Of a stretch of 11,688 nucleotides of DNA, positions 1 to 8,387 are shown in pieces. Under the pieces are notes generated by a model that worked only from the letters and a program-made list of their open reading frames with translations, searched no databases and had not been told where the DNA came from. The stretch is from the IMG/VR virus record IMGVR_UViG_2571042053_000015. The stretch is one strand, 5' to 3'. A program made the position numbers and the translations under genes. Every line of letters begins with the position of its first letter. The stretch's first letter is position 1. This DNA is from a virus. Lineage: Duplodnaviria > Heunggongvirae > Uroviricota > Caudoviricetes.

Positions 1-1260
1 ATGGCAAAGCTGACAGATATCCAAATCAAGTCATGGATTAAGGCAGGAGAGCGCTTCGAGGGGCGCTCTGACGGCAACGGGCTATACCTTCGCTATCGAG
101 CGGGGGATAAAGTGCCTGTATGGCGTTTTCGATATCAGTTCGCTGGGAAATCACGGGTAATGCTTATTGGATCTTATAGCGAAATATCCCTTTCCAAAGC
201 ACGGGAAATAGCCAAGGAATTATCCGCACGTGTAGCCCTAGGCTTCGATGTCGCCGGGGAAAAGAAAGCGCGAAAAGCGGCTGCTATAGAAAAGATGGAG
301 CGGGAGAAAAACGCGCTTCGCGTGTCAGAGCTAGCAACCGAGTATTTCGAACGGCAGATTTTGGGACGCTGGAAACATCCCGATCTTCTGCGCCGGAGAA
401 TCGATAAGGATATCAACCCACATATTGGCAACATGAAGATAGAGGACGTAAAACCCCGTCATATTGATGCGATGCTACAGAGCGTTGTTGATCGTGGCGC
501 TCCAACCGTAGCTAATGACGTTCTGCGCTGGACTAAACGCATATTCGATTATGCTATCAAGCGTCATGCACTGGAATTAAACCCAGCTGGAGCATTTGAT
601 CTGTCAGACGCTGGCGGGCAGGAAAGTAGCCGTATGCGCTGGCTGACCCGTGAAGAACTTATACGTTTTTTCCAAGCTATGCGCACTGCAAAAGGATTCA
701 GCCGCGAGAACGAGCTGACCATGAAGCTAATCCTCTGCCTGTGTTGTCGCAAAATGGAGCTGTGCGGTGCTCAGTGGGATGAATTCGACCTTGATGAAGC
801 AGTGTGGCATCTACCAGCAGAACGCGTTAAAAACGGCGACGCTATTGATATACCACTACCTCCACCTGCGGTTGGTTGGTTGAGAGAGCTTCGCACTATC
901 GCGGGCAGTGGGAGTAAATGGGTTCTCCCCGCGCGGAAGATGCAACACCGCATGATTCCCCACATTCAGGAAAGCACACTCCCCGTGGCGCTGGCAAAAG
1001 TACGCCGCGAAATGCCAGAAGTACCAAACTTCACAATTCACGATTTCAGACGTACCGCCCGCACCCATTTAGCGGCGTTGGGTGTCGATCCCGTAGTCGC
1101 AGAACGTTGCCTGAATCACCGCATTAAAGGCGTTGAGGGTATCTACAACCGCCACCAGTACTTTGAAGAACGACGGGCAGCCCTGGAACTGTGGGCGGGG
1201 CTTCTGGTTTCGCTTGAACGAGGGGAAAACTACAATGTTATTCCTTTATCTAAAATATAA
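1..1260 (+). CDS. int: Phage integrase, tyrosine recombinase, P4 / IntA-like
   Basis: Complete 419-aa ORF (ATG at 1, TAA at 1258-1260). N-terminal arm-binding-like region (GNGLYLRYRAGDKVPVWRFRYQFAGKSRVMLIGSY). C-terminal catalytic signatures of tyrosine recombinases (HDFRRTARTHL H-x-x-R box; GIYNRHQY nucleophile Tyr region). Family assignment is by recall of motifs, not database search. Confidence 0.9.
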   Translation: MAKLTDIQIKSWIKAGERFEGRSDGNGLYLRYRAGDKVPVWRFRYQFAGKSRVMLIGSYSEISLSKAREIAKELSARVALGFDVAGEKKARKAAAIEKMEREKNALRVSELATEYFERQILGRWKHPDLLRRRIDKDINPHIGNMKIEDVKPRHIDAMLQSVVDRGAPTVANDVLRWTKRIFDYAIKRHALELNPAGAFDLSDAGGQESSRMRWLTREELIRFFQAMRTAKGFSRENELTMKLILCLCCRKMELCGAQWDEFDLDEAVWHLPAERVKNGDAIDIPLPPPAVGWLRELRTIAGSGSKWVLPARKMQHRMIPHIQESTLPVALAKVRREMPEVPNFTIHDFRRTARTHLAALGVDPVVAERCLNHRIKGVEGIYNRHQYFEERRAALELWAGLLVSLERGENYNVIPLSKI

Positions 1261-2513: not shown

Positions 2514-2670
2514 GCCGGTCCTGCTGTCCGCCGAGCAGATGCAGGCCATACGCAACATTCAGGAACGTGAACGCCAGCGCTCCAATCTCGGCGTCGCTCC
2601 CACCGTTCACCAGATTGCCCGCGGCCTCATGGCTAAGGCTCTGGCCTCACTGGCAAGCGAGGGCGTGTAA
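2494..2670 (+). CDS. Small hypothetical protein (58 aa), internal start of the 2401-2670 ORF
   Basis: ATG at 2494 preceded by GGAG (2482-2485) at 8-nt spacing. Its TAA stop (2668-2670) overlaps the ATG of the next gene (TAATG), indicating translational coupling. The longer 2401 start lacks a Shine-Dalgarno. Confidence 0.5.
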   Translation: MRKPNVKPVLLSAEQMQAIRNIQERERQRSNLGVAPTVHQIARGLMAKALASLASEGV

Positions 2671-3341
2671 TGGGCGCCATTCACCAGATATATGAGCAGG
2701 AAATGTTCTATAACTGGATAGGCGATGGTAAACGATGTGTAGCATTCCACGAAGCGGGCCATGCAGTAGCCGCATGGCTTATTCGCTTAGATATGCAGGT
2801 TATCGCCATTATGGATGAATCCGGCTACGTTGCTGGCGAACATGTACATGAAGCCCAGTGTTTGGGCGTTGTTAAACACGGCATAATCCACAACCACGAT
2901 CTCAGGCGTTTGCGGGAGAGTAAATCTGGTGTAGTTGGGCACGATGGCAAAGTTATCCCTTTCATACGCTACTACGCGGAAGGTATAAAACGCGATGCAA
3001 CAAAGGCCGCTTTTGTAGCCCTCGCTGGACCAGTAAGCGAAGCCCTTTACGAAAATAACGAAATTTTCAATAAAAAGTATTCACTCCCTCACCGCTATGA
3101 CATGGCTAACGTAAATGACATGCTCGATTTAATATGTGCCACGGATAAGCAAATTAACAGGAAGTTAATGCTTTCTAAACTTGTTGAAAAGACCAAATTC
3201 CTCATGACTCAATACTGGCCGGAAGTAGGAAAAATAGCGCATTTGCTTGAGCGGGATAACATTGTTAATGGGCGCGATGTTAGCTCGCTAATCGGCCTCA
3301 ACGTCATTGACCGGGCAACGCCATTTTTGCTGGCGGAATAA
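2670..3341 (+). CDS. Stand-alone zinc-metallopeptidase-domain protein, FtsH-like (peptidase M41-type HEAGH motif)
   Basis: 223-aa ORF. Residues 24-36 VAFHEAGHAVAAW carry an HExxH zinc-binding motif in the FtsH-like context (FtsH has AYHEAGHAI). No AAA+ ATPase or transmembrane region precedes it. Start codon overlaps the upstream stop. Confidence 0.75.
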   Translation: MGAIHQIYEQEMFYNWIGDGKRCVAFHEAGHAVAAWLIRLDMQVIAIMDESGYVAGEHVHEAQCLGVVKHGIIHNHDLRRLRESKSGVVGHDGKVIPFIRYYAEGIKRDATKAAFVALAGPVSEALYENNEIFNKKYSLPHRYDMANVNDMLDLICATDKQINRKLMLSKLVEKTKFLMTQYWPEVGKIAHLLERDNIVNGRDVSSLIGLNVIDRATPFLLAE

Positions 3342-3417: not shown

Positions 3418-4476
3418 ATGATGAATAATTTAATCAATCGCATTGCTTTAACCTTTCTAGCGTTAGTACTCACAGGCTGCACTGCGGGGAAAATCGATCC
3501 CGCAAAAGCGTTAACACAAATGCATATCGTCAAAAGTGATGACTATAAGAAGCGCCCCGGCTGGCCTGCGTTGGTTCGTCTGGGTACTGACGATTGTGAG
3601 ACATACAAAAGTGGCGGCGGTAGCCTCTTTAAGTGGGACGGGCTGACGTGCAACGACAAAAGCATTATCCTGGCGGTTAATAGCAAACCACAGACCATTC
3701 CAGTGTTCTACGCTGCTTACCATGAATACGGGAGCTATGGGGTCGGGGAACTATCCAATTTTGACAATAGCACCCGAACAGGTGAGGAAGCCTCGAAGAT
3801 TCTGGTTAACCTGACCACAGTATTGAACAATCCGGCAAAAGTTGACGCTATCTATGCTGACTATGAAAAGGATCGTTGGAGCATGGGACTTGGTACAGTC
3901 AACGAAAGCGATTTTAAAAAGAGCCTGGCTACTTTTGCTCAGGAACGGGATAAGCTTGCCTCTGAATACCATAAATTACGTGACGCAAACCAAAAGAGAT
4001 ACCTAGCTGAACGGGACGAACGAATCAAACGTGAGAAAGAAGAGGCCATGGCCTCTGAAAAAACGATTGATCTCGTGTTATGGCAGAATCCAACAGTTGA
4101 GCAACAGATGGTTGTTGACGCTCTGCACACTATTAAATTCACAATAAGAAACGATGGCGTGGCATACGCTAACGGTCGCCGATTTATGTCAATTGCCGGG
4201 ATGGAATATCTCAGGAATAGCCTAGCTCTGAGTATGGAGTCATGTTCAGACGCTGGGGCATATGTTGGTGATACGGCATTAAATCGCGCATGTATTCAGG
4301 GCTTGGCGAGGAACATTGTTGAGTGGGGGAAAACCGCCAACGACCGTTCTATTTCAGACAGAGCATGGAACGCAGCCGCAATGGATGGCAGCATTAACTA
4401 CAACCCAATCAAGTATGAAATCCTGTTTTCACATTGGGCAGGAATGGCCCGTGTCTACTCTGCTCGTAGATATTAA
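3418..4476 (+). CDS. Predicted lipoprotein (352 aa) with a central coiled-coil / charged segment; function unknown
   Basis: N-terminus MMNNLINRIALTFLALVLTGC has a hydrophobic signal peptide and lipobox L-T-G-C (Cys21). Charged, helix-prone segment ERDKLASEYHKLRDANQKRYLAERDERIKREKEEA. Gene is visibly AT-rich compared with int and primase. Followed by a terminator. Confidence 0.75.
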   Translation: MMNNLINRIALTFLALVLTGCTAGKIDPAKALTQMHIVKSDDYKKRPGWPALVRLGTDDCETYKSGGGSLFKWDGLTCNDKSIILAVNSKPQTIPVFYAAYHEYGSYGVGELSNFDNSTRTGEEASKILVNLTTVLNNPAKVDAIYADYEKDRWSMGLGTVNESDFKKSLATFAQERDKLASEYHKLRDANQKRYLAERDERIKREKEEAMASEKTIDLVLWQNPTVEQQMVVDALHTIKFTIRNDGVAYANGRRFMSIAGMEYLRNSLALSMESCSDAGAYVGDTALNRACIQGLARNIVEWGKTANDRSISDRAWNAAAMDGSINYNPIKYEILFSHWAGMARVYSARRY

Positions 4477-4526
4477 ACACTGCGCTTCGAACTGATAAAT
4501 TTAAGCTTAATCAGTACATTACTGTT

Positions 4527-4552
4527 AGCCCGCATTTTAGCGGGCTTTCTTT
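4527..4552 (+). terminator. Rho-independent terminator after the lipoprotein gene
   Basis: AGCCCGC-ATTTTA-GCGGGCT stem-loop (7-bp GC-rich stem, 6-nt loop) followed by TTCTTT, 50 nt after the stop at 4476. Confidence 0.6.
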
Positions 4553-4569
4553 AGTTGAGCTTTGTACAA

Positions 4570-4585
4570 GATGTAAATTTACATC
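4570..4585. repeat. Perfect 16-bp AT-rich palindrome GATGTAAATTTACATC between convergent operons
   Basis: Verified self-complementary. Located between the + strand terminator and the stop (4619) of the - strand operon. Confidence 0.5.
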
Positions 4586-4618
4586 CTGATTATCCAGTGC
4601 GCCGTAAAAGCTGGCAAT

Positions 4619-5731
4619 CTATTTAACTAAACGTAAATGTGACGGGCGTATCCCCGATTCCTGGGTACTCGATTTTCCACCATTGATAGCTTCCATAAAG
4701 AAGCTGTTACTGAAAGTAAGTGCACTCGCTTCGTCCGCTGGTAACCTCAACTGCTCGAGAATATCTCCCCTTTTAACGCCTTTGCTGCGTAGGGCTGAAA
4801 ACACTTTATCCAGCACTAATGACTTTTCACGTTCAGCAATCCCTTGAGGCTCACTCGTACGATATCCACGGCGAGCAAGTTCTATCGATAGCTGTCGATA
4901 ATGCCATTCGGTAGATAAACCGACATCAAACGTACGGCGCACCAAAGCCGCCAATGATACCCGCCAGTTCTTTTTTAACGAGATGAGTAGATCAAGCGAT
5001 GGCATTCTTGGCACTAAAGCTAAAATACTACGCTCAGGCATCAAAAAGGCCGATGCGAATCGATCTGCATCCTGCTCAGCTTGGCGGCCGTTGTTAGTTG
5101 AATGTTTATGGAGAACCAAGTGCCCCAGTTCATGAGCTGCATCGAATCGACTACGCTCCGGCGTTTTCATTGTATTCAAAAGCACAAAAGGTTTTTCATC
5201 CATCCAGAACGAAAAGGCGTCTACTTCAATACAATTTTCCGCGAGAGAGAACACACGGACCCCATTAGCTTCAAGAAGATGGACCATGTTAGAGATGGAT
5301 AATTCACCTATCCCCCAACTTTCTCTAACCACGCGAGCAGCTCGCTCAGGCTCAGAATAACCATCGAAACTACAATCAGGTACATTAGGTTTAGGAAGCT
5401 TAAACTGCCCGTCAATCCAAGCTGATAGCTCTTGCGCGAGCTTTCCGGCTCCGAGTGCTGAGTCCCTTTTCTGTGCCGTCAACTTTGTCATTGCACGGAA
5501 ACTAACGGCTTCTGGCGACAGAGTAGGTACATCCCTGTCGAGGAAGAACTCAATCGGATAGCCCAGAACAGCAGAAATCCGTTCCATGGTATCGCTGGCT
5601 ATGGCATCAAAAATCCCTGCTTTCTCGTAATTCGAAATCGTCTTACTAGTCAATTCTGTAGCTTCAGCTAAAGCTCTTTGTGTCAGGCCTCTCCGTTCTC
5701 TGGCTATACGTAAACGCTCTGAATTAAACAT
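4619..5731 (-). CDS. Fused XRE-family HTH / ImmA-IrrE (M78-like) zinc-metallopeptidase protein
   Basis: 370-aa ORF. N-terminal HTH (RLRIARERRGLTQRALAEATELTSKTISNYEKA, typical XRE / Cro-C1 helix-turn-helix). Central HExxH in the ImmA/IrrE context (RFDAAHELGHLVLHKH). Second gene of a two-gene - strand operon, 9 nt after the upstream stop. Confidence 0.85.
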   Translation of the reverse strand: MFNSERLRIARERRGLTQRALAEATELTSKTISNYEKAGIFDAIASDTMERISAVLGYPIEFFLDRDVPTLSPEAVSFRAMTKLTAQKRDSALGAGKLAQELSAWIDGQFKLPKPNVPDCSFDGYSEPERAARVVRESWGIGELSISNMVHLLEANGVRVFSLAENCIEVDAFSFWMDEKPFVLLNTMKTPERSRFDAAHELGHLVLHKHSTNNGRQAEQDADRFASAFLMPERSILALVPRMPSLDLLISLKKNWRVSLAALVRRTFDVGLSTEWHYRQLSIELARRGYRTSEPQGIAEREKSLVLDKVFSALRSKGVKRGDILEQLRLPADEASALTFSNSFFMEAINGGKSSTQESGIRPSHLRLVK

Positions 5732-5740
5732 GGTGCATAT

Positions 5741-6460
5741 TTAGCCTGTTTTTAAAATGTCGAGATCGATATCCGGTGTAAACTGCGGTACATCACCGTT
5801 CTGAACAATAGGGTCAGGTTGATGAGGAGCAATAATTAAACGTGTGGAGAAGGCATTAACTACATTCTTGTTATTGTATGAAATCGGGCGTGAAAGCTCA
5901 GCTCGGATCCCCACGCGCTCATCCCCGTCAATTTCATAAAAATCGTAAAGTAAAAACCATAAGTCCAGTCCGATTTTATTCGGTAGCAGTGGTATAACAT
6001 CACCTTCCGGCATGTCTAAATCCAGCTTAAGCTGGCTATCATCCAGGATAAGCTCACCCTGACCCGGGGTGTTATTATGGATTAACCCCATCAGCTCACA
6101 AGTAAAATCACCTTTCTTCATGCGAGACTCAGGAAATCCATGAACCAAACCTGTCTGATCACACCCCCGGCAGAGGTAAAGGGCAACTTTATCACTTACA
6201 GTCAGTTCAACATTTCGCAGGGACAGACGTTTGTAGCCTTTCGGAGCCAGAATGTCGCGGGCTGCACTCACCCCCTCACCATAGAAATATTGCCCACGTG
6301 AGGTCTTGGGGTGATTCTGAGTCGTCGAATAACGACCAGACAAGCCACGCTCAAGAATACGCCTGAGATCACTTTGGCTCAGATTCAGGGACTGCAGGTA
6401 GGATTCAACATCGTCAGGATCTGCCAAAACAATGGTTTTTGCGAGATTATGAGAGTACAT
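5741..6460 (-). CDS. Hypothetical protein (239 aa), first gene of the - strand two-gene operon; candidate effector / toxin partner
   Basis: ORF with a good Shine-Dalgarno (AAGAGG about 9 nt upstream of the ATG on the - strand). No motif recognised by eye. Immediately upstream of the HTH-peptidase gene. Confidence 0.7.
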   Translation of the reverse strand: MYSHNLAKTIVLADPDDVESYLQSLNLSQSDLRRILERGLSGRYSTTQNHPKTSRGQYFYGEGVSAARDILAPKGYKRLSLRNVELTVSDKVALYLCRGCDQTGLVHGFPESRMKKGDFTCELMGLIHNNTPGQGELILDDSQLKLDLDMPEGDVIPLLPNKIGLDLWFLLYDFYEIDGDERVGIRAELSRPISYNNKNVVNAFSTRLIIAPHQPDPIVQNGDVPQFTPDIDLDILKTG

Positions 6461-6489
6461 CGGAAAAGCCTCTTATATATTTTCTATTT

Positions 6490-6518
6490 TTTATACCTCA
6501 TTTGAGGTTTAAAAACAA
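6490..6518 (-). promoter_or_regulatory. Candidate promoter of the - strand operon with a palindromic operator (ACCTCA-TT-TGAGGT, 6495-6508) in the spacer
   Basis: Read on the - strand: -35 TTGTTT (+ strand 6513-6518), 17-bp spacer containing the 14-bp inverted repeat, -10 TATAAA (+ strand 6490-6495), about 29 nt before the ATG at 6460. Confidence 0.35.
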
Positions 6519-6666
6519 GAAAATCACTGTATAAAATCTCAGAGATAATCGACAGATTAGAGAGTATTATCCATATTGAGGCTATCCCGACGGGGAGAAA
6601 AGCGGCTACGCCTTGCCGCCTGCCTCCCCCATTATCTCAAGGCGGTGACGTGTAAGGCGAACGTGC

Positions 6667-7494
6667 ATGAGTGGTTTTGTTTTTCCTTTCGAGTTTCAAC
6701 CAGTGCCAGAGGCATTGGCAATCCTGAACGACATGGATATTGCTCCCTTTGAAATAACCGAAAAACACCTAGAAAGCTGGTGGGCGGAGGGGAAAATTCA
6801 ACTGTGCTTTAACTGGGGTAGATTCTGGAAAGCTGGCTTAGCCGACGAACTGGCAAAAACAGAAGGCTACGCAGAATTAGGGGCGAAAGAAAAGATCACT
6901 GCGCTCAATGCTGTATCCGCTTCCCCCGAGGCTAACATCAGTCTTGTCGTGCCATCTTACAGCGATTTAAGTTTTATCTGGCGCGGGCATAGCGACGATC
7001 CACTCCCCTGTATCGAGGCCAAACCCTACGGGCTTGATCAACCTTTTGTTATCAAACGCGTTCCTCACACCTGCGAGGACTATTGCGATTACGGTACGCA
7101 GCATTGGGAAAAACTTTACCATTCGCTGCACATTTCGAGTATGGTGCTGCCGCGTGCTGAAGCTGAAAAAATTTATTATCTCTGCAACCCTACAGCTATT
7201 CCAGGCATGGACGAAAAGACGGCATCTGCAGTATCTGCAGTATCTGCGAAAACGGTTAACTATCTGGCCACTGCTTTAAAAGCTTTTATTCACATCCATT
7301 ACGGGGCTGATGTGGCGGACAACCTGCGCAAACATCTTGAGGATCCCACCAGTGATATACGGAAAGACTTTGCGAATAAAGGGATCAAAGCGCCAGGTGG
7401 AAAAGCGCTGGCCAGCCATCTGAAAAATATTCTGATTGAAGTTTTACCCGCGCTCGACAACGTCGATGTGGAGAGTGACGCTGGTAATACATAA
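6667..7494 (+). CDS. Hypothetical protein (275 aa), orphan cargo gene immediately upstream of alpA
   Basis: ORF with AAGG 9 nt upstream of the ATG. No recognisable catalytic motif. Cys/His-rich patch (PHTCEDYCDYGTQHWEKLYHSLH). Contains an in-frame 9-bp tandem repeat. Confidence 0.7.
   Translation: MSGFVFPFEFQPVPEALAILNDMDIAPFEITEKHLESWWAEGKIQLCFNWGRFWKAGLADELAKTEGYAELGAKEKITALNAVSASPEANISLVVPSYSDLSFIWRGHSDDPLPCIEAKPYGLDQPFVIKRVPHTCEDYCDYGTQHWEKLYHSLHISSMVLPRAEAEKIYYLCNPTAIPGMDEKTASAVSAVSAKTVNYLATALKAFIHIHYGADVADNLRKHLEDPTSDIRKDFANKGIKAPGGKALASHLKNILIEVLPALDNVDVESDAGNT
7222..7248 (+). repeat. In-frame 9-bp tandem repeat, three imperfect copies (GCATCTGCA GTATCTGCA GTATCTGCG), encoding ASAVSAVSA
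   Basis: Direct inspection of the sequence inside the 6667-7494 ORF. Confidence 0.7.
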
Positions 7495-7857: not shown

Positions 7858-8052
7858 TCAGGCTTTCGGCTCAATACCCAGCCGCTGGAGTTCTTTGCGC
7901 CCCAAGGTTTTCATCCAATTAGCTAAACTCATACCTGCATCTCGTGCGGCGGCCTCGAATTGCTCTTTCAATTCTGGGGCGATCCTCACTTGGAAAGCTG
8001 GTGCCTTTCCCCTGCCTTTGGGCTGTTTATCACGCTGTATTACTGTTGACAT
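7858..8052 (-). CDS. Ribbon-helix-helix (Arc / CopG-like) DNA-binding protein, candidate repressor of the replication operon
   Basis: 64-aa product from the internal ATG (MSTVIQRDK...). PAFQVRIAPELKEQFEAAARDAGMSLANWMKTLGRKEL shows the beta-strand / helix / helix pattern of RHH proteins. Divergent from the operon starting at 8187. The longer 8103 start would place the operator-like palindromes inside the coding region. Confidence 0.6.
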   Translation of the reverse strand: MSTVIQRDKQPKGRGKAPAFQVRIAPELKEQFEAAARDAGMSLANWMKTLGRKELQRLGIEPKA

Positions 8053-8108
8053 GTATGTACCTATTAAACTAAGATTCAAATCAATAGGTACGCACCTTAA
8101 CATGTTAA
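8045..8108. promoter_or_regulatory. Divergent control region with operator-like inverted repeats
   Basis: Consensus-like TTGACA at 8045-8050. Perfect 9-bp inverted repeat GTACCTATT (8057-8065) / AATAGGTAC (8083-8091) with a 17-bp spacer. Perfect 12-bp palindrome TTAACATGTTAA (8097-8108). Confidence 0.35.
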
Positions 8109-8186: not shown

Positions 8187-8387
8187 ATGGCTAAGCCGCA
8201 GTGTACCCAAACTCACCCCAAATATCAGTATCGTTTTATGGCGCTCGATCGCGCTGACCGCCAGGCAAAACCCTGCAAAATCATTGTTGAGGCCACCAGC
8301 GAGCACGAAGCGCGTAAAGTGCTGGCTCCTCACTACATCCTGTCACTGTCCGCCGTTTTGCCAGTTCAGGAGGTGAGCCATGTTTAA
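8187..8387 (+). CDS. Small hypothetical protein (66 aa) of the P4-like replication / regulatory module
   Basis: ATG with GGAG 9 nt upstream. First of five tightly coupled small ORFs preceding the primase. Resemblance to small Icd-like / Ash-like proteins of P4-family prophages is only a vague recollection, not verified. Confidence 0.55.
   Translation: MAKPQCTQTHPKYQYRFMALDRADRQAKPCKIIVEATSEHEARKVLAPHYILSLSAVLPVQEVSHV

Follow-up and report, generated by a model that had tools for sequence, protein, structure and literature searches.

RosmerTA has been described as the pairing of a Zn-peptidase antitoxin with a toxin of unknown function (Millman et al. 2022). Its example SG158, listed as 'RosmerTA' from Escherichia coli OLC-716, is marked 'Verified' (Millman et al. 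2022, Table S11). The RosmerTA fragment was assayed in E. coli under its native promoter at 37 °C, and attempts to transform a ΔrmrA construct, which lacks the antitoxin gene, failed, 'possibly due to toxicity' (Millman et al. 2022), which is the outcome expected if the toxin RmrT is harmful without RmrA. Toxins that are lethal when produced alone and neutralised by their antitoxin have been reported for two further pairs, Vmi480/Vmi470 from the Vibrio mimicus element MGIVmi1 (Luo et al. 2015) and the toxin–antitoxin (TA) pair of E. coli E101 (Rousset et al. 2021). The RosmerTA of Gordonia phage Kita likewise consists of an ImmA-type antitoxin and a toxin and provides narrow anti-phage defence (Ernits et al. 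2023); its toxin (D5) has predicted transmembrane regions and depolarises the membrane. Some papers generalise this membrane mechanism to RosmerTA. Repressors and proteases of related types are also found as separate proteins in CapH/CapP (CBASS), ImmR/ImmA (ICEBs1) and DdrO/IrrE-PprI (Deinococcus), where the output is the transcription of other genes. Here, we analyzed a pair of genes on an 11,688-nt stretch of DNA (the window), which corresponds to a chromosomal island of E. coli that has inserted between the genes yicC and dinD.

Assignment of the gene pair to RosmerTA

Two open reading frames were confirmed on the minus strand of the window, the first at 5741..6460 (239 aa) and the second at 4619..5731 (370 aa). 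PADLOC, which an earlier note on this DNA had proposed as a check, recognised the first protein as RmrT (PDLC03935, E=1.1e-52, residues 9-237) and the second as RmrA (PDLC03949, E=1.3e-149, over positions 1-363 of the 363-position model), and the genes are accordingly named rmrT (toxin) and rmrA (antitoxin). Both are co-oriented in a two-gene operon, with a 9-nt spacer (5732..5740, minus strand) running from the TAA stop of rmrT up to the rmrA ATG. The two genes share a reading frame and no clear Shine-Dalgarno sequence was seen ahead of rmrA; judged from this arrangement, their translation is likely to be coupled. A Shine-Dalgarno-like AAGAGG (6469..6474, minus strand) was read from the sequence 8 nt 5' of the rmrT ATG. 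At the other end of the operon, a G+C-rich hairpin (4527..4546, plus strand) lies between rmrA and the convergent ORF 3418..4476; its role as an rmrA terminator is uncertain, since a T-run is present on the plus strand only. In RefSeq, rmrT is labelled 'hypothetical protein' and rmrA 'helix-turn-helix domain-containing protein'.

The pair was compared with the data published for SG158 (Millman et al. 2022, bioRxiv 10.1101/2022.05.11.491447, Tables S2 and S11). Both window proteins were 100% identical, residue for residue, to RmrT (IMG 2658042941) and RmrA (IMG 2658042940) of SG158. At the nucleotide level, the first 399 nt of the SG158 insert matched the minus strand of the window exactly from 6667 to 6269, covering 207 bp upstream of rmrT together with the first 192 bp of the gene. 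With its start read from this match and its far end at 4476 computed from its length of 2192 bp, the cloned fragment would span 4476..6667 (minus strand), filling precisely the interval from one flanking ORF to the other and including neither. Because both proteins are identical to SG158 and the insert matches over 399 nt, positions 4476-6667 of the window are, with a probability of about 97% on this sequence evidence, the founding RosmerTA operon itself, an anti-phage toxin–antitoxin system, and not a variant of it. The pair is already known, being the type example whose cloning and verification were published in 2022. The earlier note had suggested RosmerTA from the order of a toxin followed by a helix-turn-helix (HTH)-peptidase antitoxin, and this guess proved right, as the pair has a recognised RmrT family partner and is identical to an experimentally verified RosmerTA member; the accompanying suggestion that the pair might be novel, whether as a RosmerTA-like variant or as a combination of partners, fails for the same reason.

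Sequence and structure of RmrA and RmrT

RmrA carries an N-terminal HTH (Pfam HTH_3, residues 7-63, E=4e-9) and a Zn-peptidase domain of the M78/ImmA-IrrE type (Peptidase_M78, residues 154-266, E=9e-21), the composition by which RosmerTA antitoxins are recognised. Its HELGH motif is intact at residues 200-204 (nt 5134-5120), within AAHELGHLVLHKH, and the fusion of an XRE-HTH to an ImmA/IrrE peptidase with HExxH that had been read from the letters is thereby confirmed. Residues H200, E201, H204 and E219 were invariant among 40 homologues, and more than 5900 homologues were detected at E≤1e-10. RmrA is also the better conserved partner, with 62% identity in the Vibrio europaeus pair versus 44% for RmrT. 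The AlphaFold 2 model of RmrA (pLDDT 86.7, pTM 0.85) places, in order, the N-terminal HTH, a long linker helix, the α/β core of the peptidase and a helical region at the C-terminus, with the final ~20 residues disordered. The best Foldseek matches of this model were CapP, IrrE/PprI and the N-terminal domain of CapH, and further Foldseek and profile matches included a PprI–ssDNA complex, ImmR (7t8i), DdrO and SinR, as well as 9vzy, an unpublished 393-aa HTH protein. Based on these matches, RmrA looks like a CapH/ImmR-type repressor fused to a CapP/ImmA/IrrE-type protease. Within the literature library searched, we found neither a dedicated mechanistic paper on RosmerTA nor one for PDB entry 9vzy.

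RmrT, previously described as having no recognisable domain, indeed gave no match in Pfam or NCBIfam. When 79 diverse members of its family were searched against Pfam, the matches were scattered and all insignificant, and neither phmmer nor a family profile found a significant match among all PDB sequences (best BfiI, E=0.12). The protein is acidic (pI 5.1) and has no transmembrane-like segment (maximum KD(19)=1.03). A structure prediction, the other computational check that had been advised for this protein, gave an AlphaFold 2 model with an α/β fold and a six-stranded sheet (pLDDT 78.8, pTM 0.75), and RmrT is by this model a soluble α/β protein. A membrane-toxin mechanism was considered for the window RmrT and rejected for want of a hydrophobic segment.

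Close homologues of RmrT numbered 43, all from Gammaproteobacteria wherever the organism was named in the source. A profile made from these 43 sequences recovered 1907 representative clusters at E≤1e-3, of which 1109 reach E≤1e-10, and family members are mostly 210-225 aa long. Across 79-154 diverse members, E188 and R207 were invariant, at least 90% conservation was observed for T47 (Thr in 92% of the family), G56, R68, G99, G104, P110, K116, G117, W168, L189, S190 and P192, and R186 was conserved in 86%. The likeness of RmrT to restriction-endonuclease (REase) folds is weak, and the αβββαβ core of PD-(D/E)xK nucleases was considered. The catalytic motif of these nucleases was not recovered, as an acidic-x-Lys is not conserved in the β2/β3 region (84-99); the best candidate, Asp100, is D in 65% of 154 members and Cys in the window RmrT. 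The invariant E188 and R207 sit on strands later than β2/β3.

Distribution of the pair and a conserved upstream palindrome

Among 5426 complete E. coli genomes, 10 carry the pair at ≥99% identity, and one has a 77% copy, on another island next to ffs with different neighbours (L002). Other loci were found in Pantoea ananatis, beside an integrase, AlpA and a reverse transcriptase (L005; toxin identity 84%), in Vibrio europaeus, beside DarT and Macro (L003; 42-44%), on a metagenomic contig (L004; 28-30%), and on other E. coli elements in MobQ or inovirus-Gp2 contexts (L006, L007 and L008; 21-23%). At L003-L006 and L008, the toxin is followed a few nucleotides later by a 346-374-aa protein with HTH_3 and Peptidase_M78 or a PADLOC assignment to RmrA. 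The order of toxin then RmrA was observed at all eight loci examined, with L002 and L007 assigned by their two-gene layout. Members of the RmrT family also occur on alpha-, beta- and gammaproteobacterial plasmids and in an Acinetobacter phage record. The rmrT-rmrA pair is a self-contained module. Using blastn with distant settings, three other E. coli RosmerTA pairs were seen; the E101 accessions are absent from all three.

These neighbourhoods bear on a second reading of the locus, according to which the pair serves chiefly to stabilise the island by addiction and protects against phages only incidentally, when expressed from a plasmid. Such a role would fit the failure to obtain ΔrmrA, the essentiality of antitoxin genes in Tn-seq and the classical TA behaviour of the related Vmi480/470 on a mobilisable genomic island. 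However, RosmerTA was assayed under its native promoter and is listed as verified, and family members adjoin other defence genes (DarTG and reverse transcriptase), which makes it improbable that addiction is the main function. Addiction and defence are in any case not mutually exclusive, and a defence role for the founder RosmerTA operon remains the preferred reading.

Upstream of rmrT, the window contains a 46-bp palindrome (6479..6524) with two 22-nt arms (6479-6500 and 6503-6524; 19 of 22 positions complementary) separated by a 2-nt spacer and ending 18 nt before the rmrT ATG. The palindromic operator proposed in the earlier note is thus a real sequence feature: nothing else of its kind occurs in the window (11.7 kb), it was not reached by any of 2000 shuffles that kept the dinucleotide content of the 206-bp intergenic region, and it is kept across loci; its function as an operator is that of a candidate. 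At the 77% locus (L002), the only stretches of upstream DNA that could be aligned to the window were the palindrome and the ribosome-binding site. Palindromes built in the same way were found 5' of the toxin at five other loci (L002, L005, L003, L004 and L006), accompanying toxins down to 21% identity. These have arms of 21-25 nt and spacers of 0-4 nt and, as computed from their coordinates, end 6-19 nt before the start codon, and they share the core TTCYTG-N7-CCTNA..TNAGG-N7-CARGAA. The two arms vary together between loci (e.g., L004 and L006), which fits a site bound by a dimer. At L008, no palindrome was found 5' of the toxin.

In the sequence, a -35-like TTGTTT (6518-6513) and a -10-like TATAAA (6495-6490) can be read 17 nt apart inside the palindrome, the former in its left arm and the latter in its right arm. 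A strict consensus promoter scan of the intergenic region (6461-6666) called no minus-strand promoter. The earlier note had proposed that the operon has its own promoter; the published clone, which had no other DNA ahead of rmrT, was tested under its native promoter.

Genomic context of the operon

The island encodes a tyrosine integrase, AlpA, an Icd-like ORF and a P4-family primase (TIGR01613, 109.9 bits versus a cutoff of 108.7), and ends one small ORF past the primase. No match to psu, delta or sid was found in Pfam or PHROGs among the ORFs scanned, a set that covered part of the small ORFs. The description of the element as a satellite is consequently only partly supported in the sense of a P4-like satellite: the integrase, AlpA, Icd-like ORF and P4-family primase agree with it, whereas psu, delta and sid were not detected among the scanned ORFs.

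In E. coli E2348/69 and AUSMDU00014361, the same island backbone was found at the same site. The shared backbone comprises the integrase, four small ORFs including one that is M41-like, AlpA, the Icd-like ORF and the primase, and in both strains a different minus-strand pair lies between the M41-like ORF and alpA. The pair of E2348/69 was assigned by PADLOC to RmrT (PDLC03937, E=8e-16) and RmrA (PDLC03951, E=3.5e-125); that of AUSMDU00014361 has the same layout and the same RmrA accession. A different RosmerTA subtype thus occupies the same slot of sister islands, and this exchange supports the view of the site as a cargo hotspot that had been put forward earlier.

The island setting also raises the question of whether the pair could be the element's own immunity switch, similar to ImmR/ImmA of ICEBs1 or a prophage repressor/antirepressor, that controls excision or replication. 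Homology to such a switch had been named in the earlier note as an outcome that would count against a defence module, and there is some resemblance, as the RmrA profiles match ImmR (7t8i) and IrrE/CapP-type proteases and the pair sits between the integrase and the AlpA/primase module. However, HTH and peptidase are fused in RmrA and accompanied by a conserved toxin partner, and the module or its family occurs in unrelated settings (the ffs island, Vibrio with DarT/Macro, Pantoea with a reverse transcriptase, MobQ elements and plasmids). The backbone is moreover independent of this pair, as the sister islands carry the other RosmerTA subtype in its slot; the 2192-bp fragment alone is listed as a verified defence system; and the island offers other regulator candidates, namely AlpA, an Arc/HicB-like ORF and a phrog 'transcriptional repressor'/Icd-like ORF. 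Control of the island by this pair is therefore very improbable. That RmrA is instead a CapH/CapP-like controller of the divergent 275-aa ORF 6667..7494, which would then be the effector, has almost no probability, as this ORF does share the 206-bp intergenic region with rmrT and, within E. coli, occurs in the same 10 genomes as this RosmerTA (≥99% identity) and in no others, but it is missing from the active published clone and from beside the homologous pairs at L002-L008, has no defence-family match, and the palindrome abuts rmrT rather than the divergent gene. For its absence from the clone and from the other loci, the same ORF was also rejected as a third RosmerTA gene and is no part of the system.

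Discussion

Overall, the operon at 4476-6667 is best read as the founder RosmerTA, and its features allow a working mechanism to be proposed. By analogy with the autoregulation of classical type II TA systems, a dimer of RmrA would bind the palindrome at 6479-6524 through its HTH and repress its own operon. RmrA would in addition neutralise RmrT, through binding or through a cleavage that allows ClpXP to remove it. The E. coli E101 TA makes clpP essential, and a suppressor substitution, T46S, lies in its toxin (Rousset et al. 2021); the conserved T47 of the window RmrT was considered as a possible counterpart of this residue. In RosmerTA-bearing Pectobacteriaceae, rmrA and clpX are jointly essential (Tn-seq). 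The essentiality of clpP or clpX alongside these related pairs suggests that ClpXP may help to remove the toxin, possibly after cleavage by RmrA. Phage infection could disable or redirect RmrA, for example through autocleavage between the HTH and the peptidase, similar to the action of CapP on CapH, and RmrT, then freed or over-produced, would stop the infected cell (abortive infection).

A more specific proposal can be made for both partners, which we put forward tentatively and consider rather unlikely to be correct in its two parts together. RmrT of the PDLC03935 type may represent an unrecognised family of soluble enzymes or nucleic-acid-binding proteins with REase-like topology and a non-canonical site formed by E188 and R207 with R68, K116 and R186, and RmrA may switch the operon at the conserved, promoter-embedded palindrome. 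If true, both the activity of the toxin and its trigger would become directly accessible to experiment. To the published system, the present analysis adds several testable handles, namely a conserved operator candidate that overlaps the putative promoter, a soluble toxin family with an invariant Glu and Arg, and the exchange of subtypes within one cargo slot. There is also some annotation value in naming rmrT and rmrA, and residual value in the neighbouring cargo genes that are without annotation.

When compared to known systems, the window pair shows no detectable difference from SG158 (Millman et al. 2022), to which the window adds the chromosomal island setting. Vmi480/Vmi470 (Luo et al. 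2015) and the E101 TA (Rousset et al. 2021) resemble it by architecture: a toxin of ~200 aa comes first, followed after a gap of a few nucleotides by a 360-370-aa antitoxin with HTH and Zn-peptidase, on a mobile island. The RosmerTA of phage Kita (Ernits et al. 2023) is similar in its combination of partners, but unlike the Kita toxin, the window RmrT has no hydrophobic segment and is predicted to be a soluble α/β protein, so the mode of action of the Kita toxin should not be extended to it. Finally, the N-terminus of RmrA matches the HTHs of CapH and ImmR, and its middle domain, with an intact HExxH and downstream Glu, matches the metallopeptidases CapP and IrrE/PprI. In contrast to those two-protein arrangements, HTH and protease are fused in RmrA and paired with a toxin, and neither CBASS nor an SOS-like regulon lies adjacent to the operon.

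Exchange of RosmerTA subtypes in related islands

The island carries a tyrosine integrase of the Arm-DNA-bind_3 type (window 1-1260) and lies between yicC and dinD, with its ends at 5300-5600 and 17200-17900 of the 22-kb locus that also includes the chromosomal flanks (L001), throughout which ARAGORN identified no tRNA or tmRNA gene. The adjoining dinD carries an internal stop in strain 2011C-4251 and is a pseudogene there. In E. coli E2348/69, a gene of the reverse transcriptase family was observed between slmA and pyrE (3442-4401 of locus L009), a few kb away from the island; it is missing between the same two genes in strain 2011C-4251.

Two sister islands, that of E2348/69 and a second one (L010), share both the backbone and the yicC/dinD insertion site with the island studied here and carry a different minus-strand pair (L009 10751-12618; L010 10736-12603), followed by a 226-aa ORF of unknown kind. 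This pair occupies the position that is held in the window by a lipoprotein-type ORF, RosmerTA and a 275-aa ORF. The PADLOC scan, which covered the E2348/69 pair, assigned it to another RosmerTA subtype (RmrT, PDLC03937; RmrA, 407 aa, PDLC03951). Overall, RosmerTA subtypes are exchanged within a single hotspot.

Neighboring genes of the island

The 275-aa ORF (window 6667-7494, plus strand) is divergent from rmrT and found no match in any of the family libraries searched. The E. coli genomes that encode it are exactly the ten that carry the RosmerTA of the window at ≥99% identity; it is missing beside homologous RosmerTA pairs at other loci and is left out of the active published clone (SG158 fragment, Millman et al. 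2022). Convergent to rmrA, and within the same variable cargo slot, lies the 352-aa ORF (window 3418-4476, plus strand) with a lipoprotein-type signal (…LVLTGC…), which had no match in Pfam, PADLOC, PHROGs or NCBIfam and is possibly a further cargo or defence gene.

Further to the left, window 2670-3341 (plus strand) encodes a stand-alone protein of 223 aa that bears an FtsH-like HEAGH motif. Its match to Pfam M41 was weak and under the cutoff (E=3e-4), some RefSeq records label it a “peptidase M41 family protein”, and neither defence families nor PHROG produced a match. As Megablast located parts of the surrounding block in 54 E. coli genomes, some of them without the RosmerTA of the window, this M41-like ORF appears to belong to the island's conserved left portion. 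Two ORFs that lie between alpA and the primase gene probably serve to regulate the island itself: an Arc/HicB-like ribbon-helix-helix ORF (window 7858-8103, minus strand; shorter in the RefSeq version) and a 66-aa ORF (window 8187-8387, plus strand), the latter annotated as Icd-like and matching PHROG “transcriptional repressor” families.

Gene junction and relation to known defence systems

Only the TAA stop codon and 9 nt (window 5732-5743) part rmrT from rmrA, and both genes share one reading frame. Together with the lack of a clear Shine-Dalgarno sequence ahead of the rmrA start, this arrangement suggests that the two genes are translationally coupled, and read-through of the stop codon would, in principle, produce an RmrT-RmrA fusion protein.

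Homologous pairs were found beside other defence genes: in Vibrio europaeus (L003 3167-6801) RosmerTA directly adjoins a DarTG-like pair of DarT and Macro genes, and in Pantoea ananatis (L005 6001-11518) a 572-aa reverse-transcriptase gene lies near the pair, surroundings that fit defence-island contexts. Within RmrT, Thr47 (window about 6320-6322) is 92% conserved across the family; in the E101 toxin-antitoxin system, which makes clpP essential in E. coli, T46S (in the numbering of the E101 toxin itself) is a suppressor mutation in the toxin (Rousset et al.).
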